Shown here: one piece after another, positions 17,462 to 56,400 of the stretch
Layout of the letters: each line of letters opens with the position of its first letter
Position numbering within the stretch: position 1 is the first letter of the stretch
NCBI GenBank assembly: GCA_000004985.1
Contig: GG738856.1
DNA from: Naegleria gruberi
Taxonomy: Eukaryota
Strand: one strand, 5' to 3'
DNA length: 64,000 nucleotides
Notes under the pieces: model-generated
What the model was told of the DNA's origin: nothing
Seen by the model: only the letters and a program-made list of their open reading frames with translations
The model's database searches: none
Made by a program: the position numbers and the translations under genes

Positions 17462-18197
17462 TCATTGTACTTTTACTCCAAACACCAACTTGTAAATAAT
17501 ATTACTGAATGTTTGAACATCAAGAAAACAATACAACCCTCTCTAGAGAATTAGTAGTTCGTTAAAGAATGGGAAAATAGCACAATAAAATCGCTTAAAA
17601 TGTTTGACAGTTCACTTTACATTTGACATTTTTCTAAATCCAATCCCTGACACAATCAGTCTTTTATGTTATCTTTTTCAATTATGGAATTTTATGCTTT
17701 TGAAATATTGTAATCATGTAACCATCATTTGTAGACTCGACAAGGTACATCATTTTACTGTAGAAACATTATTGTAATCTCTTCTTTGTTTGAGGTTGTT
17801 GAAAATCATAATGACATATGTTTTTGATTTCTTGTGACAGATCCACTTATCAAAACCTCAACATCTGCTAGGGGGATCTAGAGATTGTTATCGTATTATC
17901 TTGGCATGTACTTATTCGAAGACTTCTCACCCTTAGTAGAAATCTAAAAATACAATCTTTACCTTCAAAAATTACAACTGTTGAGGTTGTATGATATCCA
18001 AGAACTTGGCAGAAAAAACTACTCGAAAAAATGACTAAAGTTCAACCTGTTCATGATGACAATAAGAAGGTAAGTTTCAAAACAACTTTACTAACATTCA
18101 AATCAAGCAAAATAAAAATGAAGATTTGCTTCTCTTAGATGGTGAAAAGGAAAAGCTTTGCGAAAGAAAGAAAATCATTCTCAAATCTTGCATTTCC

Positions 18198-20537
18198 ATG
18201 AGATTAATCATTACCTTATTAATCATTCTCCTCTTGACGGCATGCTCCATCCTTACCTGGTTAGCTTCCTTCATTGGATCTATAACTGCCTTAGAAGAAT
18301 TATCCCAGAATCTTGTTTCTAGAGTTGGAGAGAAGGCCATTACTTACATTGATAGTCAACTGGATCCTGTTGTGAAACTTTCATCAAGTTTTGCAGCTGA
18401 CATTACCAACGGATCAATTTCTCTTCAACCCTCCATTAGCAACTTGTATCAAAAAGCAACAATCTACAAAGCATCAAGTGTTGGTGTTTTCTATTCACAA
18501 AGTTTGTACTCTGTTGTTTGGGCAGGTGTTTATCCGAATGAAGTATTGACCTATTCAGAGGCAATTCCTGGTCTAGTTTATTGGAAATTGGATGCTAGCA
18601 ATGGAAATGTGGTCTCAGTGTTCAAAAATACGTCTACTATTCCTTTTTCAATCACTTCTCAAGCGTTCTGGGCTGGAAGTTTTGCATTATTCAACTCAAC
18701 TGGTGCTGAAACGATTCTTGGAGCTCCGTATGTGGTAATCAATTCAGGAGTAGTGATTTATTGTTCTACAAAGATTTACGATCCAGTATTGATGGTTCAA
18801 GGAACAAAAAAAGTTATTGGAATTGCAAAAGTCAACTTGACCTTAAAGACCGTTCAGGATTTTTTACAGAAATTGTCCGTGATTGGAAATGGATACATAA
18901 TATTATCAGAAACGAATAACAATGTGATCGGAGCTTCTATTAACTCAACTGCAACTGATGGAGTGTCTAGAATTTCCTTATTTGACCTTACTGATAAAAA
19001 CGCTGGTCAACTGATGACAGATCTCAAAAATCAATATGGAGATATGAGCAAAGTTCCATCCTATAGCCAAATAACTAGTAAGGGAGTAGAATATTTCGTT
19101 TCCAAAATGGACTACCAATATCTCAATGTTCGTTGGAATCTGTATATGGTAATTTACAAATCTGATATCCAAAGAGTTACCAATATTAATACTGGTATCT
19201 CAGTTGCTGTTGCAGTTGTAGTTATTGGAGTGGGTATCATTTGTGGTGTCTTTATTGGACATATTGTAACGAAACCTCTCAGATTCCTTGAAGATCAATT
19301 TTCAAAAATCAAAACTTTTGATTTGAATTCTTGTAATTTCATTTCAAGCCAATTCAAAGAAGTTGATAGAATTTATGAGCATTTGTATGATATGGTCACT
19401 TGGCTTAATGAATTCAAGTCCTTCCTCCCAGAGAGTGTCTTTAATCAACTCAAACATATGGAACTAGTTGAAGATTCGAAACAGCACTCAGCAACTATTC
19501 GACAAAGCGTCCATGATTCACAAGCCATGATGTCCAGTGCTCAACTATCTTCCAAGCATTCTGGAAAATCAAGTAATCTCCAATCTGGCTTGGGAGGAAT
19601 TACTTCTGGAGGTTTATTTAAGGTTGGATTATCCACGAATAAGGTAACAATAGTCTGTGTTAAACTATTTGGGTTTTCTAATGAGAATTCCATGCATGAT
19701 TTATCGTTGCTATTCTCAAAGATTGCTTCCTGCCTTTCAAACTTGTCCAAAACTATGCAAGTCACTGATATGAAGATTAATTCTGTCGATGAATTTCAAT
19801 TATGTTTTACAAATGACAAGAAGAAGAAATCAGAATTTTTGGCCTTAGATGCAAGTTTGAAAATTGCAAAGGCATTGAATAATATTACTGGAAAGTCGGG
19901 TCAGAAAATTGATTATTCAATTGGTGTTTGTTCTGATTTGGCAAATATTGGAAATTTGGGAACTAGTTCACTAAGATATTTTTCAATTGTTGGTTCTGTG
20001 GTTGACAATGCCAAGATAATTGCATTATTGGGACATTCTAGTGCTAGCAGAGTTCTTGTGGATGGAAATACTCTGACTAATGTCAAGGAACAATTCGTAT
20101 ACAAACCTGTGGATCGATTGGAAATGGAACTACACTCTAAAAAGACAATTTGTTCGATTTTTGAAGTGATTAGAGAGAATGTTGTTAATCAAGATGAATG
20201 GCTATACGAATTGGATCAATCGAATAGTAATAATAAGTATTTAGAGTTACAATCTATTTTCCATCAACTATTCGAAAGTTCATCATCCATTTCATTCGAA
20301 ACTTTGAATGATTTCCGATCTAAACTTTCCCAATTCATGAATGAACATCCACAAGAAAGTTCAAACATGACCAAGACTTTAGAATTCTTAGAAATGGTTT
20401 TACAATGCTCTTCAGAATCTCAATCCCATGAAATGCTAAATAATTACAAAACTGTTTTGGAGAAACATTTGACCACTCTTTCTAAATACACCTATTCTGA
20501 TTCCGATGTTATTGTAACCAAAATTAAAATTGATTAA
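18198..20537 (+). CDS. Two-TM receptor: an extracellular sensor domain of about 330 aa (Cache-like), a HAMP-like linker, and a class-III nucleotidyl-cyclase homology domain with a divergent active site.
   Basis: TM1 'MRLIITLLIILLLTACSILTWLASFIG' and TM2 'ISVAVAVVVIGVGIICGVFIGHIV'. The cyclase-like blocks are 'VTIVCVKLFGFSN' (aligning with the F-x-D-I-x-G-F-T metal site, but K replaces the Asp) and 'IGVCSDLANIGNLGTSSLRYFSIVGSVVDNAKIIALLG' (aligning with IGxHxGxVxxGxxGxxRxxYxxxGDxVNxAxRxE). The first ATG in frame is at 18198. The ATG at 18030 belongs to a short uORF that ends in TAA. Confidence 0.55.
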   Translation: MRLIITLLIILLLTACSILTWLASFIGSITALEELSQNLVSRVGEKAITYIDSQLDPVVKLSSSFAADITNGSISLQPSISNLYQKATIYKASSVGVFYSQSLYSVVWAGVYPNEVLTYSEAIPGLVYWKLDASNGNVVSVFKNTSTIPFSITSQAFWAGSFALFNSTGAETILGAPYVVINSGVVIYCSTKIYDPVLMVQGTKKVIGIAKVNLTLKTVQDFLQKLSVIGNGYIILSETNNNVIGASINSTATDGVSRISLFDLTDKNAGQLMTDLKNQYGDMSKVPSYSQITSKGVEYFVSKMDYQYLNVRWNLYMVIYKSDIQRVTNINTGISVAVAVVVIGVGIICGVFIGHIVTKPLRFLEDQFSKIKTFDLNSCNFISSQFKEVDRIYEHLYDMVTWLNEFKSFLPESVFNQLKHMELVEDSKQHSATIRQSVHDSQAMMSSAQLSSKHSGKSSNLQSGLGGITSGGLFKVGLSTNKVTIVCVKLFGFSNENSMHDLSLLFSKIASCLSNLSKTMQVTDMKINSVDEFQLCFTNDKKKKSEFLALDASLKIAKALNNITGKSGQKIDYSIGVCSDLANIGNLGTSSLRYFSIVGSVVDNAKIIALLGHSSASRVLVDGNTLTNVKEQFVYKPVDRLEMELHSKKTICSIFEVIRENVVNQDEWLYELDQSNSNNKYLELQSIFHQLFESSSSISFETLNDFRSKLSQFMNEHPQESSNMTKTLEFLEMVLQCSSESQSHEMLNNYKTVLEKHLTTLSKYTYSDSDVIVTKIKID

Positions 20538-20597: not shown

Positions 20598-23500
20598 TTA
20601 ATTGTCCACAATCCTTTCATTCCATTCCTCAATCTTTTGTAAAATTTCATTAATGTTTGGTCTTTCCTTTGGGTCATGACTCCATGATTGTCTAATGAGT
20701 AAAGTCATTTCAAAAATGATATCCGAGTGGTAGTTCAACACTTCGTTCCTAGGTAGGAATGTTTCACACCAAGTTTGACATTCCTCTGCAGTAGAAAATG
20801 GAATGACAGGTCTCAATCCTTCTTCACAAACACTCTTATGGAATTGATATGAGCTATTAAATACATTTGGTTTGGATAATTTCAATTTTTGAAGAGCTCT
20901 TGCGTCCATACTTTGATATGGTTCTGTTATTTCGAATATTAATTGCCACATTACAATAGCCAAACTGTAAATATCAATTGATCGAGCATCATTTCTACCA
21001 ATATCTCCCGAAAAGAGTTCAGGACTGTTTCACCACCATATTATTGATATTGCACAATTATAAATCCATTCAGAAAAAAACTAACCTCATATAATTACTC
21101 GTTCCAATATGATTGGTGAGGGCTGAAATGCTGTGAGAAGACAAGACTCTTCCCAATCCAAAATCACACAACTTGGCAGTTCCATTCTTGTCTAAAAGAA
21201 TATTTGCTGGTTTCAAATCTCTGAATAATTGTGGACTAATTAAAAAATACTGAGATAGATCAAACATACCTGTGGACAATAAAGTTCGGCTCCAAACAAT
21301 GTAGATAATTGATTCCACTGGCTACATTGAGTAGAATGGACAGTTTCAGTTGAAGTGAACACTTCAATTGGTGTAATTCCAAGCTTCTAATCAAGGATTC
21401 CAAACTCTTATCCATATATTCCATTGCAATAAACCTCTTTGTGGGTGTTGATGAAATACCATAAAAATTGATAATGTTGGGATGTCTCAATTTGGACAAT
21501 AGAATGGCTTCAAATTTGAAATCATCTTCTGAAATATTAATATTATTCAAGTCAAATACTTTGACAGCAATAATAATTCCATTATATTTGGTTGAAAAGA
21601 CACTTCCCATTCCTCCTTCTCCAAGTCTCTGAGTTAAAAATGGTAAATTAGAACTAAGAATATGAATAACGTACCTTAATTGGTTTGTCCATGTGTAACA
21701 GCTCAACAGGAATAATAAAATTCTGCTCCTCCTCACTGGTTGGCTTGGATCCAGAGCCATTACTTGTATATTCCATTTCAGATTGAGATAAGAGTCTTTG
21801 ATCTAAAGTGAGGTCAGTATCATTTATCCTCTTTTGCTTTCTGTACTTCCTTGTGATGAAAATCAAGACAACTGAAATGATTGCAATGACCAATGCAAAA
21901 AATCCTATCAGTCCAAGAACAATTCCCAACATTAAATTGCTGTATTCACATCTCTCTCCACCAAAGCCTTCCTTACATTCGCACATATCATGCTTTACAC
22001 AATTTCCATTACGATTGCAAGCTTCAGATCCAGATATTCCAAAACAAATTGCAATTTGACATGAAACACCTGTATATCCAATACTACAATTACAATTATT
22101 TGGAGAAATACAAGTTCCATTAGAAGAACAAACAGACTGGCTTTCACTGGAAATCCCATTACAAATAGGATATTGACATTGAGAGCCAGAAAATCCAGCA
22201 TGGCACACACACTTGTTATATTCAACACACGTTCCATTTCCGCCATTGCACGAAGTGCTTTCATTTGAAGCAATGCCAAAGCATGTGGCTATACATTCTG
22301 TCATTGTCATACTAAGGACATACCCATCTTTGCAGTAGGGTTTCATCTTGTATATGACATTATATTTGGAATCTGAAATGTAGATTTCACCTTTTCCATC
22401 ATTGGAAAATGTAATACCTTCAGGAATTCCCAATGGAGCACTCACTGCTGACAATTCCATATTAGAATAGTATAGACCTCCATAGGATGTGTCTGTTCCA
22501 TTTCCAGCAATTGTTGTAATTATTCCATCTTTGATTCTTCTAATTCTACCATTGTTAGAATCTGAGAAAATGATATCCTCGTATGGAGGAATGAGCTTTA
22601 AAAATGTTGGACTGTTAAGTTGGGCGTTTTTAGCAGGTAGTCCATCTCCACTAAATCCCTTAATACCTGTTCCAGCCAATGTTGAAATTGTTCCATTTTT
22701 GTAAACTATTCTAATTCGGTGATTGTTTCGGTCAGAAAATATGATGTCCCCTGTGATTTTTGAATAAGCAATACCAGATGGGTAGGCCAAAGATGTTTGT
22801 AATGAATTAATATCATCTGCATAGAATCCATATCCACCATTTCCAGCGATTGTGTGCACAATTCCATTTCTAATCATCCTAATCATGTTATTCGTTACAT
22901 CAGTGAAATAAATGTCATTATTTGGTGCGATGGTCAATCCAAGACAATTTCCAATAGCATTTTCAGAAGGACCTAAATCTCCAACTCCTCCAGCAAGTAT
23001 TTCTATTGTCTTTTTCATAGTATAGACTCGAATTTTATCATTTCTAGTATCGGCCACTAGTACCATCTTCTCCTCTAAGGAATTTGCTACTGCATGAACA
23101 GACATAGGCCCATTAATTTTGGCAGTAAGTGCTGAATCGCCATCTCCCTCAAATCCAGGAAATCCTGTCTGGCTAACAACTGTTCTAATGTTGAAATCAG
23201 TTGTTGAAATGGCCCTAATCTTATTGTTAAATGTATCAGCTTCAAGAAATGTTAATTATTGAATGGATAGAAAAACAGAACTTACCAACATAAATGTCTG
23301 AATACCCATAACTGACACTGTGAGGATAAAAGAGCTGACTTCTGATAGCTGGACCTTCATCACCACTACTTCCATCAATTCCTGTTCCTGCAAGTGTTTT
23401 TACTGTTACATCTGTAATCACTCTAATTCTATGATTATTTGTATCCTTTTAGTAACTTGTTAATGTTTCCAATATGTGATAAAACTTACAGCAACAATTA

Positions 23501-29299: not shown

Positions 29300-29605
29300 A
29301 TATTTTTAATATTTATTAAAACGATGATTTTTTATACTATTGTAAGTCAATACATGTAAAATTTGATAAAAAATATAATTGCAAAAAAGAAAGGAAACTG
29401 GAATTGATTGAAAATGGAATTCGGTTGATTGTAAGATCTTTGGGATTACAATTGACAAGCTGTGTGGGTAGGAAAACTGAAGATGTGAGTGATTGACATT
29501 TAGAGAGATATAACATTTTGTTAAAGAGATAACACCTTTACAATAATAATATGGATAATAAAATTGGAAAGATTATATTAGAATCATAAATAAAATATCA
29601 AAAAA

Positions 29606-30043
29606 ATGACAACACTAACAATCAATACCAATTTCATTTTAGAGGGTTTTAAAAGCTTCCGTAAATCCCTTACTACATCACCTCTCTTTACAAAATCACC
29701 TCCCGCTAAAACTATTCGAAACCTCAATACATCCAATCATTCGAATAATGATAGAGACCACGACGATTACTTCTTTCACGAAGAAGAATTACAAAAGAGA
29801 AGAGAATTACAAGTAAAGAAAATACCGGAAAGAAAAAAGGAAGAATTCGAAAGAAGAGTAAAGAGACGAAAGGTTTCGATTGGTTCCGCCAAGTATAAAC
29901 CAGTTGTAATTGTGGAGGTAAAGAGATCAAACTTGCAAATTATTAGTTCCTTAAACTTGGAAACTCGACAAGATTTTGATGAGAAACCAAAAATGGTGAT
30001 GAGAGAAAGAAGTAGAACTGCCGCACCTTTACTTCACCTTTAG
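29606..30043 (+). CDS. Hypothetical basic protein of 145 aa.
   Basis: A-rich start context. The central segment is Lys/Arg/Glu-rich. No identifiable domain. Confidence 0.3.
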   Translation: MTTLTINTNFILEGFKSFRKSLTTSPLFTKSPPAKTIRNLNTSNHSNNDRDHDDYFFHEEELQKRRELQVKKIPERKKEEFERRVKRRKVSIGSAKYKPVVIVEVKRSNLQIISSLNLETRQDFDEKPKMVMRERSRTAAPLLHL

Positions 30044-30188
30044 ACGAAACTTGCAGAAGAAAGGTTTTGGAGCTTATTAAAATGGTTGGCCCATTTACAG
30101 AAAAACAGAATCTTTCTCTAATAAATAGAATAACTTGCGAGAATTAAAATTATTTTTGTAATTTTTGTAATTTAATAAAAAAATTTAA

Positions 30189-33100
30189 TTAAAGATCTGC
30201 ATCTTCAATCAGAGAATTTTCAATAAGAATAAACAATGCCTCCAAATCATCTTGTTTTTGTAAGAGTTCAATACTTGCAGTGTCTAATCTGAAAGATTTA
30301 TCTCTCAATCGAATAAATCTGATGGCCTTAACAAGAATGTCAAAGATGATGTGTTTGTGGGCCTTGTATGTCTTATTCCTCAATCGATCAATCATTGAAT
30401 TAATATCACAGAATAGTGAGAGAATAAAGACTGCATGCATGATGAATTTTCTCGTATCAACGTCATCGTTGGAAGAAATTGTGAGAATATAATCGAAAAG
30501 AGTGGAAACTACATTGTCGTTCACTCGTTCAGATTTGAGCATACCAATGGCCTTAATGGCATGTAAACGAAGAATGACCATTGATCTTCCTTCCTCGATG
30601 ATTCTCAATAAGAGAGATTGAACTACCTTTTCATCGTTATAATTTGCAACGTATCCTAAAGATTCGGCACAGAGAGCTCTGATTACTTCTGGAACTTCAC
30701 GATTTTCCAAACGTTCCATCAAGTGTTGGACAATGTTTTGTGCACCCCTTTCTGATTTTCTACCCAACAAACGAACTGAAACTTCCACCACACCAATGTC
30801 AGTATGTTTCAATAATTGAATAAAAGTATCAATGACTGCTTGATTGTTTGTATGACTAATCTTTTCCAAAGTTGTTGTACATGAGGTAATAACTTCCTCT
30901 GATTCTGAGAGAAGTCGCTTACAAAGAATTTCAATGATTTTCTGATCACCTTTCTTTGCAATTTGAGCAAGAGCAATGGCACTCTGTTCTCTGTTTACAT
31001 CCTTGGATGATCTGTTTGAAAATTGTTCCAAGAGTGCACAAATGACAACTTCATCCTCCTTTGGAGCTGAATATCCAAGTGCACAAATAATTCTGTCAGG
31101 TTGAGATGAGGTCTTTAACATTTGAAGGAGTTTGCTAACAAGGGCAGGATCCTTTCTTTGACTGATAGATCCCAAGGCCATTGCAACTCGGTATGCAATT
31201 GACTTTCTTTCATTTTCCAACATGTTCAATAATCTGTACTGAATAACAGGCAACAAATCAGGAATAACAACTGCAGAGAATGCTTCACTGACAATCATGT
31301 CATCAAAACTGCTTTCTTTCAAACAATCAATGAGTGTATCAATAATTTCCATGTCACCCTTTTCGGCTAATTTACCCAAGCAAATACAAGCTTCATAACA
31401 CTTGTTCGAAACCTTGGTCAATTCAGAAATAACAAGCGGATCACCATATTTTGCAACAGATCCCAATCCAATACAAGCAACCTTTCTAAAGTTGTAATCG
31501 TTCAACATTGGAATCAACATGTTAATAATTGTCGAATCTTCTTTCTCTGCAACCTTTGTAATTGCTTCAATGGCTGCTTCAATAAGAGGAACGTTGGCTT
31601 TGTTGCTTGTACCCTTTGGAGTATTGTTAATAATATTAGTTAGGGCTGAAATAACCGCCTTGTCACCTCTATCAGCCAATTTACCAATACAAATGCAAAG
31701 TCTCTTTCTAATATTGATATCCTTGGTTTCTTCCAATTTCTTAATGAGAATCGAGACGAATTTTTGTTCTCCCTTTGGCATAATAATTGAAAGTGCATGA
31801 ATAGCATATTCGTTGGTTTCTACGTGTTGTAAAAGCCCATCACCAATCTTTTCGAATAATTGATTGTACATGAACGATCTAGTAATTGCCTTATTTCTCA
31901 AATCTTCTGATTTGTGAATGAGTCCTTGCACAATCATTGAGACATTCTCATCAGTCTTTAATTGCTTCATAATCTTGGAGTATTCTTGATGCTCAGATTT
32001 TGGTCTCTCCATAATCATATTGTAAATAACACTGTCAACTGAAGTCAAATCCTTCTTGAATAATTTCATGATGAGTTTGATGAAATCATCAAAATCGTTT
32101 TTGGCCATTTCAGATGCACAGAACAAGAATGTTTCACTAATGAATTATAAGATGAAAACTATTCGAAATAACTTACGTATAGAATGGATCAACAATAAAT
32201 TGTTGAATTCTTTCCTTGAAAAATTCAAGCTTGTTCTTGGAAAATGGACCAGTTGCTCTCACTCTAAAATCACTGACAACAGATGTGTTAGCCCAGTGAC
32301 TTGCTACAAGATATTGTTGGAAAGAAGTGTGACTGAAACGATATTTACCATCTCCACATGCCATAATTAATGGGAATTTACCCGAGTCAATTCTAGGTTG
32401 AAGAACTTTCCATTGGTTTTGGAATTCTCCATTCGAAACTGCATGGAAAATCCAATCGTCACCCTTGGAAACTAAATCATTTTCTGCAGTGCTGGTAAAC
32501 AAGCCACCATCACTGGTATTATTGAGAGATAATTTTCGAGCAACTTCAATAGAATTAGTAAAATCTTGAGAACTGAACGTATGTCTTCTCAATTTGTGTA
32601 AAAAGATGGACACTTTTCTCAAGAATTCAATGAGGGTAATTTGCATTCTATTGACTTTCTGCTGATCTGACACCAACTTGGTATAGTGAAGTCTGGTAAT
32701 TGTTTGGAGAGCATTTTGATAAATCTTGGATCTGATTTCTGGAAGGGAGCCATTTGTCTTGTACTCTTGAATGATGAGTGAAAGTAAAAGTGGATTCTTT
32801 GCCAATTCTCTGTACTTTCCCTTGATTGCTGAAAAGAATAAACTATCCACAATGTTACGTTTCAGAGCAATCTTCTTTTGAATATCAAATGTTAAATTTT
32901 CCAAAGTGGCAGCAATAAAGGAGGAGAAGAATTTTCTTGTTTTAGAATCAGCTTCAATACCACCCAATCTAGTTGTAACCATAAGTCCATTAGAGTTAGA
33001 AACTTCATCTGGAGGTGGGAATTGTTCAACCAGAGATAGCAAGAGTCTCTTCTTTTGTTGAGGAGAAGCAATTTCATCAATACCATCGAAAATGAAGAGA

Positions 33101-35712
33101 ACTCGTTGTTCCTTCATGGCTGTCATCAAGTAGTGTTCCAAAAGATTGACATACCTCACACTGTTACCATTGGCACTATTTTGCATACTGGCACCAGCAC
33201 TAGCTCTAATACATTTCAAACGGAAATCAGCATCGGCATTTCTCAAACTAGCAAAAATACCAGCAGGAATGAAGAGTGGAATGAGAATTCTGTCACCAGT
33301 GACTTGAGAGGATTTACGTTGCTCAATCTTCTTCTTGATGAATCTTGTGACCACCATCTTGAGCATTGAGGTCTTTCCTGATGAAGCATTTGAAGTAAGC
33401 AAGAATCGAAGATTATTAGAAGGAAGTGAAGAAATGAATTCTGCTCCATCTTCATGGAAAATATTCTTGTACTCTTCATATTCAACTTTTTCGTCTGTTT
33501 TACCATTCGAAAGTTCTTCAGAAAAATCTTCAATAATGTGAACTCTTCTTTCATTGTCGAATTCCTTGTCATCACTGGCTTGTGTAGTGGTGGTAGTAGA
33601 TGCACTGTTTGTTGAAGAGCCAGTTCCAATCAATTCATCAACCCAGTTCTTTCCATGTTGAATCAAATGAAGAGGAACACAATGCTCATCCACATATAAA
33701 GTTTCCTGACTGATTGGCTCGACAAACAGTCTTTCATTTTGTAAAATCATGTCCAAATATTGGCTTTCTGCTGTTTCATAAGCTTGTTCAGAGAGAGGTT
33801 TCAAATATTCTTCAATATCCCAATTCGATTCTCCAATAACAAGACAATTTTGAATCAGATTGAGTACGTCCAAGTTGAAAGGAAAACCTGCCTTTCTAAC
33901 TAGATTGTTATAACTGAGAACGGTAACAATACCTGTCCTTTCATCGTCCACAATGTCTACATCAAATCCTTGATTGGCTGTAATCATCTTCTTGAAACCT
34001 CTTTCAGCATTCTTTGGAATTTTGTCAAAATCCAAGTATTCTTGGTAAGCTTGTCTAAAGTTTGCCCAGGTTACTTCTTTCATTTCTGACCAACCACTTT
34101 GTTTCCAAAATTCTCTGGCCTTGTCCAATTCAATAGATTTGAGTGGGTCTCTAATTTTCATTAATCTAGCTCTTTCCAATTGTCCTAAAAGACTTGCCAA
34201 TTCTTTAACATCATTATCTATGAATTCATCACTTTTGGATGGTGTAGAAGGTGTATTTTGATCTATTTTTGGTATCAGTTCAGAAATTTCCTTATCCAAA
34301 TCACTAATAATTTCCTTAGCTTCTGGTCTATCGACTGGGTCAATCTTTAAACATCTGTCAATAATTCTAACTAAAACTTCATCATTATTCTTCAATCTTT
34401 GCATGATATATTCTGGATTATTTCTAATTTCATTGATTAAATCAGGAATTTCACTTTGGGAATACAAACAAAGCAATTGGAATAATAAAATACCCAAAGA
34501 CCAAATATCCACTGCCTCATCATAACGCTTACTTTCAAGCATTTCTGGGGCAATATATTTCATTGTACCCATGACAGTGTTCATGAGTTTTTCATCTTTC
34601 CTAGTGAAACCAAAGTCACAAACTTTGATCATTTGCTTATTCTTTGTAAGTAAAATGTTATCTGGTTTGATATCTCTGTGTGCAATTTTCTGACTGTGCA
34701 TATATTCCATACATTTACAAATTTGTTTAGTCCAACTCTTGATTATATCAGTTTCGAATGGACGTTGTTCACGTTGTCTTCTGGAAATTTCTAATTCCAA
34801 ACTTCCATCAATACAATATTCCATAACAATATAGAAACGAGTTTGTTCAACAATTGATCCCTTCTTTTTCTCTTCAAAAATGTAGTGATGTTTCACAATA
34901 TTTTCCTGTTGCAAGGTCAATAAAAATTGTAAATCTCTTCTTGCAGTTTCTATTAAAGAATTAATTTCAAATCAATTGATTGAGGAGAAAAACTTACCAA
35001 TTTCTTCTGGATCTTCACAAACAACCAACTTGATGGCCACGTTTGCATCTTCTCCCTCGAGTGGATTTTTGAGCTCTGCAGAAAAAACTGCTCCTTCATT
35101 ACCTCCACCAATCTTTTTAACAATTTTGAAATCTTTTAATGTTCTTTGAGTACTATTCTCGATTGTTGTACTATTCACAGTGGCAATGTCTTTCTTTTCT
35201 GTTGTTGTTGTTGTACTGTCACTTTCTTCACTACTATTGGAAGGTTTAGTTTCAGATGAAACCTCTGTTTCTTCTGGTTTCTTCTCGGTTGTATTAACTG
35301 TATTATTGTTAGATATGGTATTAGATGACTCGGATGATGATTTTTCAGTTTGAATTTCCTCTTTCGTCTCGTTATTTTCAGTAGACGAAACCTTTTCCAT
35401 CCCATTATTATTGATATCGCCATTATTATTATTGATAGCAGCAAGACTTCCATTCACACTACCACCCACCAATGAAGATGATGACGATCCGGCCGAATTA
35501 TTCATAGTCGGACTGACAGCTGTCGATCGAGGTGTTGTTCCTCCAGCACTATCAGCACCACCTCCACCTCCAACACTTCCATCATTACTTCTTGGTGAAT
35601 ACAATAGACTATTACTATTCCCTCCTCGTGGTGTTGTTGGTGAGGCCTCCACTTGCACCTTGTTGGAAAAACTCTCGTGCCTCTTGAGCGCGTTAAAAAT
35701 GCTATCAGACAT
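30189..35712 (-). CDS. STAND/NLR-like signalling ATPase: a low-complexity N-terminus, a Ser/Thr protein kinase, a NACHT NTPase and C-terminal HEAT (PBS-lyase type) repeats. Three exons, approximately complement(join(30189..32136,32177..34949,34998..35712)), about 1812 aa.
   Basis: Kinase: 'IGGGNEGAVFSAEL...VAIK' then '...HRDIKPDNILL...KVCDFGF...GTMKYIAPE'. NACHT: Walker A 'NASSGKTSML', Walker B 'VLFIFDGIDE', 'MVTTRLG', 'NPLLLSLII' and 'FSHTSFQQYLVASH'. C-terminal repeats include 'ALGSISQRKDPALVSKLLQMLK' and 'AIALAQIAKKGDQKIIEILCKRL'. Introns of 40 and 48 nt (GTAAGT...TTAG/ATAG) join the three track ORFs in frame. I take the start at the second Met (35712, context aaaaaaaaaaATG). The alternative start is 35784. 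Confidence 0.8.
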
Positions 35713-35920
35713 TTTTTTTTTTTGGATGATGAAAATTGCTGTTGTTGATGGGAGGATGAGAATGAACGAATGAGGAAGGGACAAGAGACGAGATTTCAGT
35801 GATGTTTGTCTGAGGAAGTTCCCTGCAAAGAGTTTGAGAGAAGATTTTTTATGGTGGATTCGTGTGAGTTTTTTTTCGATTTGTATACAATGGTTGATTG
35901 TAATAAATTAAAGGATTTTA

Positions 35921-36949
35921 TTAAGGGGAAGCAAAATTAAATTGAAGGGAAGCATTTGGAATGGTAGGAGGGAGAGGTGGAGCCATTCCAATTGGATGTG
36001 CTGATATTCCAGATAAACTTCCAAGGGTTAACCATCTGAGCAAAAGAATGAGACCAATCATGGCCAAATAAATATAAAAGAATTTCAATGCCAAAAGTGC
36101 AATATTCAAAATAGCTTTGAAAGCAGACTCTAAAAATGTATCTTGTTGACTTGGTGTCATTGTAACAGTTCCAACTTTGAGTTGATTTTGTAATTGCATT
36201 TCAATCCAAGTTGATTTGATTAGTGAAATGTAGAGTTGTTGATTTTTGATAATTCTTGATGGAGAGGTGTTTTGTACATTGTTATTTACAGAATTTTCTC
36301 TTAGTGAGGTTGAAATTTGGTTAGTTTGATTCGAATGAGTTTCTAATAAATTATTTGAGGTATTGTTTTGAGAAATGGATGGAGGAGTGGAAATGGTAGA
36401 ATTCTCTGATAATGTTTGATTGAGGGTCACAATCGTAAACTGTTTCTTATTTGATTTGATGAGCAAAATGACTTGTTCATCAGTTTTATGGGAAAGAACG
36501 AAGAATGCAAAAACAAACAATCCAATCGTTGTAATTATCAATCCAATTCTTCTCTCATGAATCAAAACCATACTATAGTTGACAATTTTTTGGATAAAGG
36601 TGTTGCTTGATTGAGTAGTTGTTATCGTTTGATTATCATTGTCCATTTCCCTATTAGGAATTGATTTCAAAAAGGATTTTATCTTGTCCAGAACGGAAAC
36701 AAGACATAAACACAATACTAAACATAAGAGTATTGTCAGGTGATTAGGACCTGTCGCCGATGATGTTGTTTCTAAACCTGTTTCATCCACACTATTTGAC
36801 TTTCTATTACAAAAACTAAAGAATTGAAAGTTATGCGAAATTAACCAATCATACACCATTGAATGTATGGAAAATGGTGGTATGGCAGTCATTGAACAAA
36901 ACCACGACGATTCATCCATTACAATTTGATTATTACTGTTCATTTTCAA
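35921..36949 (-). CDS. Hypothetical multi-pass membrane protein with an Asn/Ser/Thr-rich loop.
   Basis: Three or four hydrophobic helices ('LTILLCLVLCLCLVSVL', 'IGLIITTIGLFVFAFFVL', 'ILNIALLALKFFYIYLAMIGLILLL'). No recognisable domain. Confidence 0.4.
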   Translation of the reverse strand: MKMNSNNQIVMDESSWFCSMTAIPPFSIHSMVYDWLISHNFQFFSFCNRKSNSVDETGLETTSSATGPNHLTILLCLVLCLCLVSVLDKIKSFLKSIPNREMDNDNQTITTTQSSNTFIQKIVNYSMVLIHERRIGLIITTIGLFVFAFFVLSHKTDEQVILLIKSNKKQFTIVTLNQTLSENSTISTPPSISQNNTSNNLLETHSNQTNQISTSLRENSVNNNVQNTSPSRIIKNQQLYISLIKSTWIEMQLQNQLKVGTVTMTPSQQDTFLESAFKAILNIALLALKFFYIYLAMIGLILLLRWLTLGSLSGISAHPIGMAPPLPPTIPNASLQFNFASP

Positions 36950-38213
36950 ATCTCAATGCTCGGAATCTATTTTTCAGTCAACTGCTAATTTGTCCTTTCG
37001 TTTTTATCAATTATTATTAATAATAAATAACCCTGAGAGAGCTCTTCAGAAGGAATGCTGTTGTTTTTTTTAAATATATCATCATGCTGGTTGTTGGCTT
37101 GGATTGATTCTTACCAAACTTCCAACATGCCTCAAAATGGCACTCCAACCAAGAATTGAAAAATTGGCGCGATAAATGGAAGATCCAAAAAGACCTCACT
37201 TGCCGAGCGCTGAAGGAGGAGAGAAATTGCTTCCGCTCTTAAGGAAAATCCACGCTTTATCTGCATCAGCAAGATGATGTTGTTTTTGAGCTTGTGTTGA
37301 GAAGGTTATGAATTGGCAGTTGACAGATATTGGAAAAAGTCCGTCTTATTGAAATATAAATTTCGCTCGTGGAAAATGAGGGTGTAATAATGTGAGAGTG
37401 TAAATTACCGATTAGTTCTGTTATCGATTCTCAATTTCATCACCCTGAATGCATCACTAGAAAATGATTGTCATTTGAGTTGATTAGTTTCGGAATTGAT
37501 TTCAAATTTTTCGAAAGGACATTAGAGAATCACCTCATGCTCACTAATCTCTCTCAGCAAATGTAACCTCATAATTAATCTGGGGATGACGCTTATTACT
37601 CAAAGTGCGATGATCAGCGCACTAAAATCGTGGCTTTTGGATTTTGATTGTTTTTTAATATATCCTTAAAGGAATGAGAAGTTTTCTTTGATAATCTCCT
37701 GTAGAATCTGTGATTTACAGTAAATTGAGAATGACAAAGCTTTTTCTGGGATTCAAACAAGGTCGATTTATAAATATTTAAAACAATTAAATCGGAACAA
37801 TTAAATAAGAGATAATATTTGTAAAATTATTTAGCAGCCAGAATGGAAGAGTCCCCTAATTATCTTTTTAATTTCCGAAATCTGTGGTTGTCGATCATAT
37901 TAATTTTTAACACGTTTATTCATCAGAAATACTGGCGTTCTCTCTATCATTTCTATAGAATTCGGGTAGCTCTTCTACGGGAATGAATGTAAGGGTATGG
38001 ATCTTCAATTCTATTGGAATAGAATTCATGAATTGAGTCAAAGTAGGTAGTGATCCCTTCTTTCCCGATGAGACTACTGTTTTAAAATCATCGATGCGAA
38101 TTTCCCATTTTTCAAAGTACTATTAATGCATAGTGATTATGTCAAAGTTCAGTGACTAGAAATTTAAGAGAAAAAGCCCAGGAAAAGATGCCAAATTACC
38201 TTAGAGTGTGAAT

Positions 38214-38984
38214 TTATTGTAACCAAGATTGACAAGTAGAAACAGCGTTAGGAGATGTAGTTCCAACTGGTGGGAATCTCAACCATTCTCTCATGGAAAC
38301 TTGTGAAACACCCAAAGTTGGATCGTGCATTGGCATGGTAGCAACACCTTGAGCCATACCAACTCCCCATTGTGGATGTTGCAAATCAAAGATAATAGTT
38401 CTGGCATAATCTAAATTTTGTTGAGCATCTCTCCAACCATCAATGAAAGTTTGTGAGCTAACTCTAATTGGAGCAGTGAATTGAGTATTATTGGATTTGT
38501 AAAAGAATGAATAATATCCGAATTGAGCAATAGCATCCTTAGGAATTGGATAATTAGTGAATGGATCAGTCTTGGATGAATCCAAAGCAACAACTGTCAA
38601 CATGTCAACATAAACCTTAACAAGTGGACTTCCAAAGAATCTACGGTTTGATGTAACAGCACCAACAACTGAATATCCTTCAAAACTACCCTTTTCTAAT
38701 CTGAAACTTGTTGGTAAATTGGAAGAATTGGTAAAATCAATGCCGAATCTTGTCTTGAAAAATTGCAAACCTTCATTCAAACGTTGAGCTGTGAATCGTT
38801 GAGTATTTAATGGATATTCTAAACGTTTAGGGATTAATTCAAAGGAAACAGCATCATCATATAAAAGTGTCAATTCAGCAATAAAATTCTTGCTTGGATC
38901 ACAAGTCACTTGTCCATATGTGAAATTTGCAAGAATTAATAATATTAATACATTAACAAGAAGAATAAACTTCATATTGTACAA
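38214..38984 (-). CDS. Secreted protein of 256 aa. It is a paralogue of the N-terminal domain of the adjacent haloperoxidase-like gene.
   Basis: Signal peptide 'MKFILLVNVLILLILANFTYG'. It aligns with residues 60-290 or so of the 39653..41593 product ('FFKTRFGIDFTNSSNLP' against 'FFRNQYGLDISADGSRLP', and 'QFGYYSFFYKSNNT' against 'LIFGFYTFFWKVNGT'). Confidence 0.5.
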   Translation of the reverse strand: MYNMKFILLVNVLILLILANFTYGQVTCDPSKNFIAELTLLYDDAVSFELIPKRLEYPLNTQRFTAQRLNEGLQFFKTRFGIDFTNSSNLPTSFRLEKGSFEGYSVVGAVTSNRRFFGSPLVKVYVDMLTVVALDSSKTDPFTNYPIPKDAIAQFGYYSFFYKSNNTQFTAPIRVSSQTFIDGWRDAQQNLDYARTIIFDLQHPQWGVGMAQGVATMPMHDPTLGVSQVSMREWLRFPPVGTTSPNAVSTCQSWLQ

Positions 38985-39652: not shown

Positions 39653-41593
39653 ATGACCTCCAACAATTATTGTAAATTAACCATCATGATGTTTTTCATG
39701 ATGATATTATTCATGGCCTCTCTTTCCCATGCCTACTCTCCAACCACCGAAACTGATCCAGATGAATACGATACTCAATTCTCCCTCTCTCTAGTTTCGA
39801 ATACTTTAGGTTCTATTGAACCAGGTCCAGTAACCAGATATCCAGATGCCTACGAAAAGGCCACAAGTTTCTTCAGAAATCAATATGGTTTAGATATTTC
39901 TGCTGATGGATCTCGTCTCCCAGTTGGTGCTCAACTCGTTACTGGTTCTGCCTCAGCTTACGTTATGAATTATGCCAAAGTTCGTGGTTATCCAATTTTG
40001 GCAGGTTCACAAGATGTTGGAGTTCATGATGATACTATTAGTATTGTCCTTTCTCAACCAGCTGTTGTTCATGGAGCTTATGGTGGTAAGAATGGAACTT
40101 TTGTCGATGGAAATTCTGTTTTAATTTTTGGTTTTTATACTTTCTTTTGGAAAGTTAATGGAACTTCAGTTTTTCCAAGATCTACCTTTGCAGGAATGAT
40201 GCCAATGAAGATTGGTCCAGATGGTTCAATGGTTGTTGATTGTGAATTGACTTCTAATATATTTGGAAAGGGTATGGCTAGAGGAATTATGCTCATTAGA
40301 ATTAATCCTCTAACTGGTCAACCTTACACAACCATTGTTAGTTCACATACTTACCAAATGTCAAAGACTGATACATCTCCAAAATGTGCTGTATTGACAA
40401 CTGAAAAGGACATTCACAATGATGACTTTGTTGTCAAGTGGAATAATGTCTTGTTGAGCGTCATTCGTGATTTGAAAGTTGCTCCACCAATTGCCTCAAG
40501 ACAAATGGCCATTCTTCACACTGCCATTGATGATGCCCTTGGTAATTGCAGAAGATTGAGATATACTTCTAGAAAGTGTACTCGTGCTACTTTGGTTTCT
40601 GTTATTTCATATGCTGCTCATCGTGTCTTGTCCAATTTGTATCCAGCTCAAATTGATTGTTTCAATGGAGCTTTGAAGAGAGCTTTGGAATGTAATGAAT
40701 GTAAGACTGTTCCTAGAACTGAATTGGTTGCCATCGGTAAATCAGGTTCTTTGGCAGCTGACAGAGTTTTGAGATGTAGAGATAATGATGGTAGTACTGA
40801 TTTTGTTGATTATAATTTCTCTAATGGACCAATGTCTTATCAATCCCATGCTCCAAACTATGTCAGAGTTCCATTGTTACCTCAATGGCCAAATGTTGAA
40901 CCATTTGGTGTTCAAGATGTTGATTCTTTCGATCAAGGTCCTCCACCACAAATTGGAACTCCTGCATTCGAAAGTTCATACGATGAAGTTTTCACATATG
41001 GTAAGAATGATTCTAGTGTGAGAACATTTGAACAACGTAGAATTGCCTTGTTCTGGGCTGATAATGCTGGTACAAGTACTCCACCAGGTCACTGGAATAT
41101 CATTTTACAATCCATCATTAGAAAGATGAATATTGTTGATACTTTCAAGATTTCTGGCATGTTTAAGGTTTTGACTAGTTCATTGGCTGATGCTGCTATC
41201 GTCTGTTGGTATCATAAATACAAGTATGATGCCTTCCGTCCAGTTACTGCCATTGCCAACAGAAATAGAAATACTAATTGGTTCCCATTTTTGGCAACTC
41301 CTCCATTCCCAGAATATTCTTCAGGACACTCAACATTTTCTGCTGCAGGTGCCAGAGCTTTAAGTTTATTATTGGGAACTGATGATATTTCCTTTGAAAC
41401 CATTTCTGAAGGTTATGTTCATCATGTGAGACAGTTCAGTAAATTGTCAGATGCTGCAAAAGAAGCTGGTAAATCAAGAATCTATGGTGGTATTCACTTT
41501 GAATATGCCAACCAAGCTGGTTATACTTCAGGTGTTGCTGTTGCCAATGCTGTTTACAATCAGTTGTGTAGAAATGGTTCATGTCTCGTATAA
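39653..41593 (+). CDS. Secreted vanadium-dependent haloperoxidase / PAP2 acid-phosphatase superfamily enzyme with an N-terminal accessory domain.
   Basis: Signal peptide 'MMFFMMILFMASLSHA'. Complete PAP2/V-HPO tripartite motif: 'KYKYDAFRP' (KX6RP), 'YSSGHS' (PSGH) and 'SRIYGGIHFEYANQAG' (SRX5H..., which resembles the 'RIFLGVHWRFD' of fungal V-chloroperoxidase). The spacing between motifs is canonical. Confidence 0.75.
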   Translation: MTSNNYCKLTIMMFFMMILFMASLSHAYSPTTETDPDEYDTQFSLSLVSNTLGSIEPGPVTRYPDAYEKATSFFRNQYGLDISADGSRLPVGAQLVTGSASAYVMNYAKVRGYPILAGSQDVGVHDDTISIVLSQPAVVHGAYGGKNGTFVDGNSVLIFGFYTFFWKVNGTSVFPRSTFAGMMPMKIGPDGSMVVDCELTSNIFGKGMARGIMLIRINPLTGQPYTTIVSSHTYQMSKTDTSPKCAVLTTEKDIHNDDFVVKWNNVLLSVIRDLKVAPPIASRQMAILHTAIDDALGNCRRLRYTSRKCTRATLVSVISYAAHRVLSNLYPAQIDCFNGALKRALECNECKTVPRTELVAIGKSGSLAADRVLRCRDNDGSTDFVDYNFSNGPMSYQSHAPNYVRVPLLPQWPNVEPFGVQDVDSFDQGPPPQIGTPAFESSYDEVFTYGKNDSSVRTFEQRRIALFWADNAGTSTPPGHWNIILQSIIRKMNIVDTFKISGMFKVLTSSLADAAIVCWYHKYKYDAFRPVTAIANRNRNTNWFPFLATPPFPEYSSGHSTFSAAGARALSLLLGTDDISFETISEGYVHHVRQFSKLSDAAKEAGKSRIYGGIHFEYANQAGYTSGVAVANAVYNQLCRNGSCLV

Positions 41594-53457: not shown

Positions 53458-56400
53458 ATGCAGACATTACCTAATACCCAATACAAAACATGTCAGAGAG
53501 CATGTTTAGTCATGTTTATAATGCTATTCATATTATCTGCATGTATTGTCGAATGCTTTCTAACAGTAAACATTACTTATTCGATTTCCACACTTGTTGG
53601 AAATGATGATAATAGCAAAACAATGGACGGATTGCCAGGTGTTGGCACTTTTGTAGATGGACCTACTGGATTATTCTGGCAAAATGGAATCTTGTTCTAT
53701 GCAGGTAAGTTTCTTGTTGCATGTTGTGTGAAAAATTAAATTGAAATCGAATAGAAAGAAAACACATTAGAAAGTTGGAGAATGGAACAGTAACTACACT
53801 GGCAAGTGGTTTGTCTACACCAAATGGATTATTTGCTCTTAATAACACTATTTACTTTGCCGAAACTTCAGCTAATAGAATTAAGAGAATCAACAGTGAT
53901 TTGACAATTGACATTGTGAGTGCAAACAATACTTCAGGAGGATATAATGGTGATGGCATGCTTTTTAACGCAACATTCTTTGATCAACCAGTCAGTTTAT
54001 GTATTGGTAGTGAAAATATAATTTACATTACTGATTCGAATAATTACAGAATTAGAAAGGTAGATACAGATGGAAAGGTTAAAACAATTGTTGGTGCAGG
54101 ACTGAATGGTTTTAATGGTGATGGTCTCGGTGTTGCCACATACATAACGTAAGTTTTCACATGCACTTTTCATTGTTAACTTTCGAATAGTTGGGCAACT
54201 TCTATTAAATACTGGACGAATGGCTTGAAATCACTATTATACTTTGTACAGTTGAATGAAGGAACCATCAGAACACTAGATCTGAGCACTAACTTGATTA
54301 CAACCATTGCTGGAATTAGGGCAGCTGGAACTTTTGATGGAGATGGAAAATCAGCTTTACAAACTTCATTCTTTCGAATGACTGATGTTACAATATCAAA
54401 AAAGAATGGAAATATTTATGTTACTGATAAGAGCAATCAAAGGATTCGTAAAATTAGCAGTTCTACCAATTTGGTTTCGACAATTGCAGGAAATGGATCC
54501 ATTGGATTTGTTGACTCAATGTCAAATGCCATCAATGCTTCATTGTTTAATCCAATGTATTTAGTTTTGACTGATAATGATGAAATAATCTTCTCAGAGT
54601 TTGGAAATAATAGAATTAGAAAATTAACTCCAACCTGTCCAGAAGGTTACATGTTAGATCTTTACAATGACACTTGTAAAATGTCTTGTTATGGAAAGGC
54701 GTATAATGATCCCAATGTTTGTAGTTCAAGAGGCATTTGTGGTTCTCCTGATAATTGTATTTGCTCTGGTGATTATTTTGGACTGGAATGTGGATCTCAA
54801 TGTGATGCTTTTTCACTGCCAACTGTCAGGTCTGGATCTAAATGTTTGCCATTTTGTTACTCATTGATGGGAAAGGTAGATTTGATATTATCAAGAGCTA
54901 AAGCTATGGTCAATTCAAATGTTACTCTACATGCGAGTATCAATGATAATTGCCTTTCAGAAGTCAAGCAATTTTTGAATATTTCTTACATGATTACAAA
55001 ACCAGATAATAGTACAGACACAATTAGTACCAACGATATGATGATCATCTTGAGTATGAATCAAATAGGCGTCTATACTGCTTCGGTTAAAATCGAATTG
55101 AATTCAACCATCATTTTCATTTCGAATAACTCAATTTCAGTAACTTGTAAAACAAAGGAAGATTATCTTTCAGGTGACTTGACCAAGATTCCAGTTGATG
55201 AACTAATTGATTTAGCTAACTCCCCAGATACTTATCAACAAATTGGAAACTTGACTGTTCAGTCAATTATGAAATCACTTGCTTCATCACTTTCTACTCA
55301 AATTAACCAGCAATTAGATTTACCTTCTCTTGCCAAGTTGACCAATGCGTTAGTTACTGTTTCTACAAAAAAAACATATATTTCAGAGGATGTTATTGTT
55401 GACTTGAATAATGCAATGTATAATGTTTCATTCTCAGTTGACAAGTTTAGTTCTAATTCGTCTAATTTCCAAGTTTTAGAGAGAATTGTGACCTCAATAG
55501 TTGAAGGTTTCACCAATTGTTATTCAACATCAAACCAAACATCACCTTCAACTGTCAACAATTTGCTCAATCGAGTTGTTTCTATGGTTTCCAAAACATC
55601 CAACAAGTCAGACGATGAATTTACAACAAAATCATCAGAATTTACAATTAATGTGAAAAGAAACATTTTAACTCAATTTTTCAATTCCACACACGTCAAC
55701 TTGTACTCACCAAAGAATCTAAGAGATTCCACTATTTCAGTTGCAACCATTTCATTCACAAATCCTCTCAAAATGGTCAACTCATCAAAGGATGCAGAAA
55801 ATATTTTAACATCAATTCCAATTACAGAGCAACTCTTCAATCAGTCGAATGTAAATATTAGTTTCAGTATTTCACCAATTGTTGAAATTCACTATCTCAA
55901 AAATGGTCAAGTAATCAAGCTGGTCAACCTTGCCGATCCAATTATCTTCCAATTTATCACTCAAAATATTTCAACACTTAACATGACTAACTACAAGGTG
56001 AAATGTATGTATCTACATGAGGAAACAAACAAATGGTTGTCAGATGGCTGTCAATCTTCATTTGATTCAATGTCATCAGTTGTGACCTGCTCTTGCAATC
56101 ACACGACTAAATTTTCAAGTTTCGTAATGAGAGAAACTAATCTCACCTTATACTCTGAACATCAATTAGAAACTGATATTTCCTTAGCAGTTTCTGGAAT
56201 AACAGTCTCGTCAATATTCATCTTATGGATTATATTGATTATTATTGGCTTAATCTTTACAAGAAATACGAATCCAAGAAAGTCAAGATGGATTATTCCT
56301 TATCTTTGCCTTACTTCACTCTTAATTGACCTCAGTTTCTCAGATATTGTTTCGAATGCCCTCTTCCTCTCCAAGGAAATCAAATCTTCCGATATTATCA

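Follow-up and report, generated by a model that had tools for sequence, protein, structure and literature searches.

A conserved kinase-NACHT-HEAT protein with an EF-hand-like module in the amoeba Naegleria gruberi

We analyzed a 64,000-nucleotide stretch of Naegleria gruberi DNA (contig GG738856.1 of the GenBank assembly GCA_000004985.1), which is called the window below and by whose letters all positions are numbered. On its minus strand, comparison with orthologs confirmed the prediction of one spliced gene that encodes a single protein combining a Ser/Thr kinase, a NACHT module and an arm of HEAT repeats. A conserved EF-hand-like pair lies between the kinase and NACHT as a fourth module. 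On balance, the protein is probably a conserved heterolobosean signaling protein of the STAND/NLR kind, in which a nucleotide-gated, oligomerizing switch would activate the protein's own RD-type kinase. The gene model and the NACHT module are described first.

Gene structure

Three long open reading frames (ORFs) on the minus strand between positions 30189 and 35784 are joined via two introns into a coding sequence of 5,436 nt, which is divisible by three and yields 1,811 amino acids plus a stop codon; the initial annotation of this locus had likewise proposed one spliced gene and put its product at about 1,812 residues. Exon 1 (34998..35712) begins with the first ATG (35712-35710), which is preceded by a run of A, and provides residues 1-238 and the first base of codon 239. 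Intron 1 (34950..34997; 48 nt, GTAAGT...AATAG, phase 1) falls between the kinase VAIK motif and the αC helix. Exon 2 (32177..34949) encodes residues 239-1163 with the C-terminal part of the kinase, the EF-hand-like module and NACHT, and is followed by intron 2 (32137..32176; 40 nt, GTAAGT...ATTAG, phase 2). Exon 3 (30189..32136) encodes residues 1163-1811 and the stop codon at 30189-30191. The exon join proposed initially, with its ATG at 35712, was thereby retained, while the outer limit given at 35784 is an ORF boundary only.

Removal of either intron restores the frame. Without splicing, translation of the first ORF would end within intron 1 and that of the second with the opening codon of intron 2, and the kinase would be cut between VAIK on exon 1 and the αC helix and HRD motif on exon 2. 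Decisive support for the single-gene model comes from colinear orthologs. The spliced protein aligns with N. fowleri XP_044561468.1 and Willaertia magna KAL9652529.1 with no gap at the junction residues 239 and 1163, and the residues that meet at intron 2 (VDPFY-T-ETFLFC) are contiguous in the alignment with VDPFYKETFLFC of N. fowleri. The reading of the three ORFs as separate genes for a kinase N-lobe fragment, a kinase-C/NACHT protein and a HEAT protein, with coincidental introns, agrees with the way prokaryote-style gene callers split them on a metagenome contig, but its likelihood is practically nil, since a kinase divided between VAIK and the αC helix cannot fold alone, both junctions are canonical and frame-restoring (GTAAGT...TAG), and both orthologs are annotated as single proteins that are colinear across them.

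The NACHT module

The nucleotide-binding oligomerization (NOD) core of the protein comprises the nucleotide-binding domain (NBD), helical domain 1 (HD1) and winged-helix domain (WHD) of a NACHT module (32275..33429, minus strand, residues 746-1130). It contains Walker A NASSGKTS at 33367-33390 (residues 759-766), Walker B LFIFDGIDE at 33073-33099 (residues 856-864), sensor-1 MVTTR at 32968-32982, NPLLLSL in HD1, and the WHD motif FSHTSFQQYLVASH / FSHTSFQQYLVA at 32296-32337. All motifs quoted in the initial annotation, here and in the kinase, were located where it had placed them. The G, K and T of Walker A are invariant in the close family, and the D, G, D and E of Walker B are invariant in 40 aligned sequences. 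The sensor R440, P499 and WHD H653 form near-invariant columns of the 40-sequence alignment, the consensus of which reads ILGxPGSGKTTLL ... LFDGLDE ... IVTSR ... ELAxNPLLLT ... GxYxFxHLTFQEYLxA. The Walker B motif fits the published consensus hhhhD[GAS]hDE (Leipe et al. 2004, as quoted in PMC12258605). Upstream of the P-loop, a helix and β-hairpin motif, YLDMILQNERLFVEPISQETLYVDEHCVPLHL (33649..33789, minus strand, residues ~626-672), forms an N-terminal extension of NACHT. It is conserved in the family, and in a profile alignment it pairs with NLRP3 KYRKYVRSRFQCIEDR..SVSLNKRYTRLRLI, just upstream of the NLRP3 NACHT.

The module had been described as a textbook NACHT NTPase. Motifs, profile and fold all mark it as a genuine NACHT; at the level of sequence scores it is divergent rather than textbook. 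The Pfam NACHT family (PF05729) reached 22.6 bits with the full protein and 23.9 bits with the exon 2 part, below the gathering cut-off of 26.7; this match (E ~1e-4 to 4e-5) covers profile positions 78-154 only. Matches to AAA_16 and NPHP3_N were weak. A paralog (P0005) passes the PF05729 cut-off with 31.1 bits. A single-sequence phmmer search of the NOD against PDB returned one match, a spurious PPR, which was discarded.

Since the single-sequence score stayed below the Pfam threshold, assignment to the NACHT clade needed profile and fold evidence. A full-length family profile against PDB was dominated by HEAT matches and was consequently trimmed to the NOD. A profile built from the 11 closest family members only matched NLRP5 in PDB at E=3.7e-5 over 338 positions, and the next 20 matches were almost all NLRPs, including NLRP3. 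Aligned by HHalign with a profile of Pfam-annotated NACHT proteins, the same profile scored 99.94% (E=9e-37, 313 columns), and its sequence search found seven NACHT proteins and recovered PF05729 proteins at E 9e-22. Residues 460-1162 were modeled confidently by AlphaFold2 (pLDDT 83.1, pTM 0.80), and the model matches the NBD-HD1-WHD fold of solved NLRs. Its best Foldseek matches in PDB were autoinhibited NLRC4, ADP-bound NOD2, NLRP2/3/7 and NAIP5, and the predicted conformation of the NOD is closest to ADP-bound NOD2. Altogether, there is firm support for placing the protein in the NACHT clade of STAND P-loop NTPases.

Within this clade, the WHD motif points to the NAIP-like subtype as the likely assignment. 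The consensus reported for the WHD of NAIP-like (N-NACHT) proteins is FhHxxhQE[YF]hxA (PMC12258605), and the WHD motif FSHTSFQ[QE]YLVA fits this type. If the second position of the consensus is left free, the N. fowleri ortholog and most paralogs match it fully; altogether, 29 of the 40 aligned relatives do so.

Kinase, EF-hand-like module and HEAT arm

The Ser/Thr protein kinase domain (34297..35127, minus strand, residues 196-456) spans intron 1 and was assigned from its motifs and from Pfam Pkinase, which matches residues 196-454 with E=1.9e-52 and 178.7 bits against a cut-off of 31.7. The glycine loop GGGNEG lies at 35092-35109 and VAIK at 35029-35040 (K228), followed by the catalytic motifs HRDIKPDN at 34657-34680, DFG at 34609-34617 and APE at 34543-34551. 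The earlier description of a complete kinase domain thus holds. Judged by these residues, the kinase is intact and, because the HRD motif is present, of the RD type. RD-type kinases are generally switched on by phosphorylation of the activation loop. The domain belongs to no specific subfamily, as PKA, NEK1, Aurora, MST and PKR were all matched at ~1e-27 to 1e-25 (phmmer against PDB). It is preceded by a low-complexity N-terminus rich in S, T, N and G (35128..35712, minus strand, residues 1-195), which is poorly conserved (24% identity to N. fowleri and 5% to W. magna) and is best regarded as a presumably disordered head.

The fourth module had been missed in the initial annotation and is conserved in the family. 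It consists of a long helix and a Cbl-type EF-hand-like pair (33829..34227, minus strand, residues ~480-612). The Pfam family Cbl_N2 (PF02761) gave 14 bits with the query, below its cut-off of 22, and matched in 6 of the 11 family members with a best E of 1.1e-4; a profile of the module matched CBL in PDB at E 0.1. The fold is similar to the EF-hand region of the Cbl tyrosine-kinase-binding (TKB) domain, and this region and the EF-hand-like linker of STATs are its nearest known counterparts. The context is different. The TKB domain of Cbl consists of a four-helix bundle, an EF-hand and an SH2 domain, whereas here one long helix precedes the pair and the NACHT pre-P-loop motif follows it, and there is no SH2 domain.

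C-terminal to the WHD, a helical region that resembles an HD2-type linker (31725..32274, minus strand, residues 1131-1300) spans intron 2 and shares 64% and 52% identity with N. fowleri and W. magna, respectively. It is followed by the HEAT solenoid of the PBS-lyase/EZ type (30525..31724, minus strand, residues 1301-1700). In exon 3, Pfam HEAT_2 matched with E=7.9e-21 to 6.9e-24 (74.6-84.4 bits) and HEAT_EZ with 30.3-39.8 bits, above threshold; HEAT and Arm matched as well. Against PDB, the family profile found designed alphaRep HEAT proteins at E 1e-31. The repeats are helical hairpins of ~31 residues. A scan with the motif '..A..ALG.IA.KGD...I..L...L' returned 13 windows, with ~10-11 clear units between residues 1306 and 1680 and degenerate flanking units, which makes the "at least eight" PBS-lyase/E-Z type repeats counted initially a conservative figure. 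The protein ends in a conserved helical tail (30192..30524, minus strand, residues 1701-1811), which could be placed in no family and is 63% identical to that of the N. fowleri ortholog and 45% identical to that of the W. magna ortholog.

Orthologs, paralogs and selection

The N. fowleri ortholog (XP_044561468.1, P0002/P0152; 1,948 aa, "protein kinase domain-containing protein") is 68% identical to the N. gruberi protein, and the W. magna ortholog (KAL9652529.1, P0003; 1,738 aa) is 53% identical. Annotation of the orthologs does not go beyond "hypothetical" or "protein kinase domain-containing". A word-indexed homology search recovered no sequence other than a metagenome copy of the protein. 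An exhaustive search of representative sequences with residues 460-1162 yielded 186 relatives at E<=1e-3. The distant relatives all come from metagenomes, and those that were scanned (P0019, P0022, P0026 and P0027) are bona fide NACHT proteins; P0019 scored 58 bits, and P0026 is a NACHT protein with HEAT_2.

According to domain mapping, no close relative in this small family departs from the order kinase, EF-like, NACHT, HEAT, and those seemingly devoid of a kinase start within it, with a truncated C-lobe. On two metagenome contigs that carry paralogs (L002, 5657-9876, and L003, 461-5111), Pkinase-matching mini-ORFs lie directly upstream of an EF-NACHT-HEAT ORF, and the neighboring genes are of eukaryotic type (Ras, WD40, PPR and SIR2). 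Judging from this arrangement, both loci are the same kind of intron-split gene, and these paralogs extend the family beyond Naegleria and Willaertia. W. magna itself has at least a second family member (KAL9646116.1). Among the 150 nearest NACHT relatives retrieved, a clear kinase was found only in the kinase-EF-NACHT-HEAT family and in none of the ~125 more distant relatives.

The HEAT arm is about as well conserved as NACHT. Identity to the two orthologs is 65% and 53% for the HEAT arm, with 3-5 gap positions in 400, compared with 69% and 55% for NACHT, and the number of repeats is constant across the 1:1 orthologs. Selection was assessed between two strains and paralogs were counted in the 64-kb window, so that both results apply to these samples. 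No paralog was found within the window.

The strain comparison rests on a metagenome contig (ENA ERZ929261, k127_597297) that is 99.2% identical to window positions 29377-37371 and represents the same or a sister strain. Its copy of the gene was called as three ORFs, and because of this prokaryote-style split the database entry does not display the full architecture. Within the coding sequence it differs by 13 synonymous and 6 non-synonymous changes and two in-frame indels of 3 nt. Half of the non-synonymous changes (3/6) and both indels fall in the low-complexity N-terminus, outside of which 12 synonymous and 3 non-synonymous changes remain. The predominance of synonymous changes and the in-frame indels show, at the level of the sequences compared, that the region is coding and under purifying selection. 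By these measures the gene behaves as a conserved single-copy 1:1 ortholog in Naegleria and Willaertia, not as a fast-evolving immune receptor.

Proposed mode of action and alternatives

The mode of action that we favor for this protein is that of a nucleotide-gated switch. At rest, the NACHT module would hold ADP in a closed NBD-HD1-WHD arrangement, with the HEAT arm probably folded back. Binding of a conserved ligand or partner to the HEAT arm would release this lock, ADP would be exchanged for ATP, and the NACHT modules would oligomerize. The N-terminal kinases would thereby be brought together and could trans-autophosphorylate their activation loops (DFG...TVMGTMKYIAPE), after which the activated kinase would phosphorylate downstream targets. 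Such a protein would hold the logic of NOD2 and RIPK2 within one chain. We infer the autoinhibition, the oligomerization and the activation of the kinase by proximity from the analogy with solved NACHT proteins, and the nature of the signal from conservation. Given a sensor arm that is no less conserved than the remainder of the protein, we expect an invariant or endogenous signal (stress, a metabolite or a conserved partner), not a fast-evolving pathogen effector.

Several points weigh against this scheme. The packing of the HEAT arm on the NOD is assumed. The first glycine of Walker A is a serine here (SNASSGKT), while the W. magna ortholog has the canonical GQASFGKT. The WHD motif FSHTSFQQYLVA is one residue off the NAIP-like consensus, with Q for E. 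Finally, the EF-like loops, as read from their residues, are devoid of canonical Ca2+ ligands.

A strict NLR immune or cell-death receptor, whose HEAT arm senses a component of an intracellular bacterium or of a giant virus of Naegleria and whose kinase triggers defense or suicide, is unlikely, although several observations speak for it. The tripartite order of effector, NOD and repeats is that of such receptors, and it was on this NLR-like order, which stands, that the initial annotation had based a candidate innate-immunity switch. The NACHT is probably NAIP-like, and every one of the solved structures nearest to it is an immune NLR; a study of antiphage defense describes NACHT proteins of bacteria that carry HEAT repeats or kinase effectors (Kibby et al. 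preprint); and the HEAT region weakly matches the PADLOC models HEAT-ARM_XIII and OloA. Naegleria and Willaertia are also hosts of Legionella and other intracellular bacteria, and a conserved microbial pattern as the ligand would still be compatible with the data. The immune part of the initial proposal fares less well, however, when conservation is considered. The protein has a 1:1 ortholog, a sensor arm as conserved as its NOD and a constant repeat number, there is no tandem paralog or cluster within 64 kb, and the strains differ under purifying selection. PADLOC, including its Avs and bNACHT models, reported no family at E<=0.1 for residues 460-1162, leaving the NOD unmatched. Expansion, clustering and hypervariable sensor repeats of the NLR type were thus not seen in the 64-kb window, the two orthologs and the two strains. 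A receptor caught up in an arms race would not be expected to show this conservation pattern; an immune role is possible, but the data lend it no support.

We consider it improbable that the protein works in the manner of LRRK2 and the ROCO proteins, with NACHT tuning the kinase in cis within a monomer or dimer, the HEAT arm docked to constitutive partners in the cytoskeleton, trafficking or the cell cycle, and no high-order oligomer triggered by a ligand. A single-copy, well-conserved ortholog would suit this role, as would a HEAT profile that also resembles the scaffolds AP-1/AP-2 beta, CAND1 and importins, a kinase about equally close to NEK, Aurora and MST, and the conserved, rigid spacer of helix and EF-hand between kinase and NOD. 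On the other hand, the Pfam scan found no Roc-COR module, and to our knowledge the NACHT-clade STAND proteins studied so far signal by oligomerization. The data themselves do not separate activation in cis from activation in trans.

Instead of providing the output, the kinase might serve as an integrated decoy or bait, a role suggested for the CHK2-like kinases of some fungal NLRs and for the kinase integrated domains of plant NLRs; the Sordariales study reads its Pkinase domains as possible decoys (PMC12258605). For the Naegleria protein this can essentially be excluded, given that the domain occupies the N-terminal effector position with all catalytic residues intact, is more conserved than any other module (79% identical in N. 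fowleri and 66% in W. magna), is present throughout the family, and has no near-identical stand-alone counterpart in the PDB search, which returned only generic matches.

Relation to known systems

The initial annotation had called the architecture an uncommon combination. This needs qualification, as pairs of kinase with NACHT and of NACHT with HEAT are already known; what we saw described in no publication is the full kinase-EF-NACHT-HEAT chain and its occurrence in Heterolobosea. We also found no literature on NACHT proteins of Naegleria. The pattern-recognition receptors that a study of W. magna identified in that species include NB-ARC-TPR and NBS-LRR proteins but not the present family. 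The protein is therefore a new domain arrangement, in a new lineage, of a known kind of protein, each domain pairing of which is already known in fungi and bacteria.

The closest counterparts by domain order are the N-NACHT/HEAT NLRs of fungi, such as the sesB-like/NACHT/HEAT protein Pa_6_7270 of Podospora, and the NACHT-HEAT proteins of Rickettsiales. NAIP-like NACHT with HEAT is a recognized architecture in these two groups, for which a single transfer from a proteobacterium to opisthokonts has been proposed (PMC12258605). As in the Naegleria protein, whose NACHT is probably NAIP-like, the NACHT is followed by C-terminal HEAT repeats; the Walker B type hhhhDGhDE is shared, and the WHD motif of the Naegleria protein is within one residue of the type FhHxxhQE[YF]hxA. 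This likeness is one of motifs and domain order. The Naegleria protein differs at its N-terminus, which carries a kinase and the Cbl-like EF pair instead of a sesB-like or HeLo domain, and in its host, a discoban amoeba with a single conserved ortholog in place of a variable, clustered repertoire.

Kinases fused to NACHT, as here, occur in both fungal and bacterial proteins. Pkinase has been listed among the N-terminal domains of fungal NLRs (PMC4986451) and, for NACHT proteins as a whole, among the effector domains (Kibby et al. preprint). In Sordariales kinase domains are rare, 9 of 12 are C-terminal, and they are CHK2-like and were read as decoys (PMC12258605). In contrast to these mostly C-terminal CHK2-like domains, the Naegleria kinase is N-terminal, generic and family-wide.

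Among animal NLRs there are systems in which the NOD switch controls or needs a Ser/Thr kinase. The nearest are NOD1/NOD2 with RIPK2 and NLRP3 with NEK7, and the NACHT fold of the Naegleria protein is closest to those of NOD2 and NLRP3. In the animal systems, a kinase that is a separate protein is recruited via CARD-CARD or LRR contacts, and LRRs form the sensor; in the Naegleria protein the kinase is fused, the sensor is a HEAT arm, and there is no death-fold domain. LRRK2 and the ROCO proteins, which are expanded in amoebae, share the general plan proposed here of a large chain in which a nucleotide switch and a helical or repeat scaffold regulate a Ser/Thr kinase. Their switch is the Roc GTPase with COR in another domain order, whereas that of the Naegleria protein is NACHT, and neither Roc nor COR was found in it by the Pfam scan.

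Significance

The pairing of a probably NAIP-like NACHT with HEAT repeats in Heterolobosea bears directly on the single-transfer hypothesis (PMC12258605). In addition, a NOD fused to an intact RD-type kinase offers a compact test of whether STAND oligomerization activates kinases by induced proximity. Because their NACHT falls below the Pfam threshold, proteins such as this one are missed in censuses of protist NLRs. Nothing in these findings is categorically new, as NLR-type proteins are notoriously modular, and the conservation pattern speaks against a classical arms-race role in immunity.

A more far-reaching interpretation, which we regard as rather unlikely, is that the kinase-EF-NACHT-HEAT family serves heterolobosean amoebae as a genuine surveillance receptor of the NLR type, with the relationship of NOD2 and RIPK2 hard-wired in one chain. 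If this were true, NAIP-like NACHT/HEAT receptors would exist in Discoba, well beyond opisthokonts and Rickettsiales, which would argue against a single transfer from a proteobacterium to opisthokonts as the origin of the NACHT/HEAT architecture. The protein would also be a tractable model in which the activation of a kinase by a NOD could be studied within one chain, and it would be the first case of a Cbl-type EF-hand module used outside the SH2 context.

Neighboring genes

The window has a G+C content of 31-37% and contains eukaryotic genes with introns. The only other kinase-like match of the query within it is a multi-exon receptor-like kinase on the minus strand (20598-23105) with NHL repeats, EGF-like Cys-rich repeats and a transmembrane segment (ORF 21654-23105). 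The kinase motifs of this gene are distributed over several exons, with GEGGMGSVF..AVKV in ORF 21260-21760, RDLKPANILL..CDFG in ORF 21070-21318 and SHDPKERP in ORF 20598-20963. On the plus strand, a large ORF (54225-57533) resembles an adhesion-GPCR-like/RGS fusion, with an NHL repeat, a GPS motif (GPCR proteolysis site), an apparent multi-pass membrane region and, at its C-terminus, an RGS domain. A PAP2 or vanadium chloroperoxidase-like protein with a hydrophobic, signal-peptide-like N-terminus is encoded at 39653-41593 (plus strand), and the ORF on the opposite strand at 38214-38984 has a similar N-terminus. At 18126-20537 (plus strand) lies the gene of a membrane protein whose match to dCache_1 is weak (E 0.003) and falls far short of the threshold; its long C-terminal half is assigned to no family.

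At the edge of the window, the SAHN|YHPL motif of an ornithine aminotransferase (OAT) gene on the minus strand (759-2200) is interrupted by a GTATGT...CAG intron of ~270 nt, so that introns in this genome measure between ~40 and several hundred nt. The OAT protein is 86% identical to that of N. lovaniensis and 79% identical to that of W. magna, and full identity (100%) was seen with metagenome contigs only. In W. magna, the OAT gene and the ortholog of the kinase-NACHT-HEAT gene are found on one 366-kb contig (ABK040_000053 and ABK040_000099), which hints at loose synteny.

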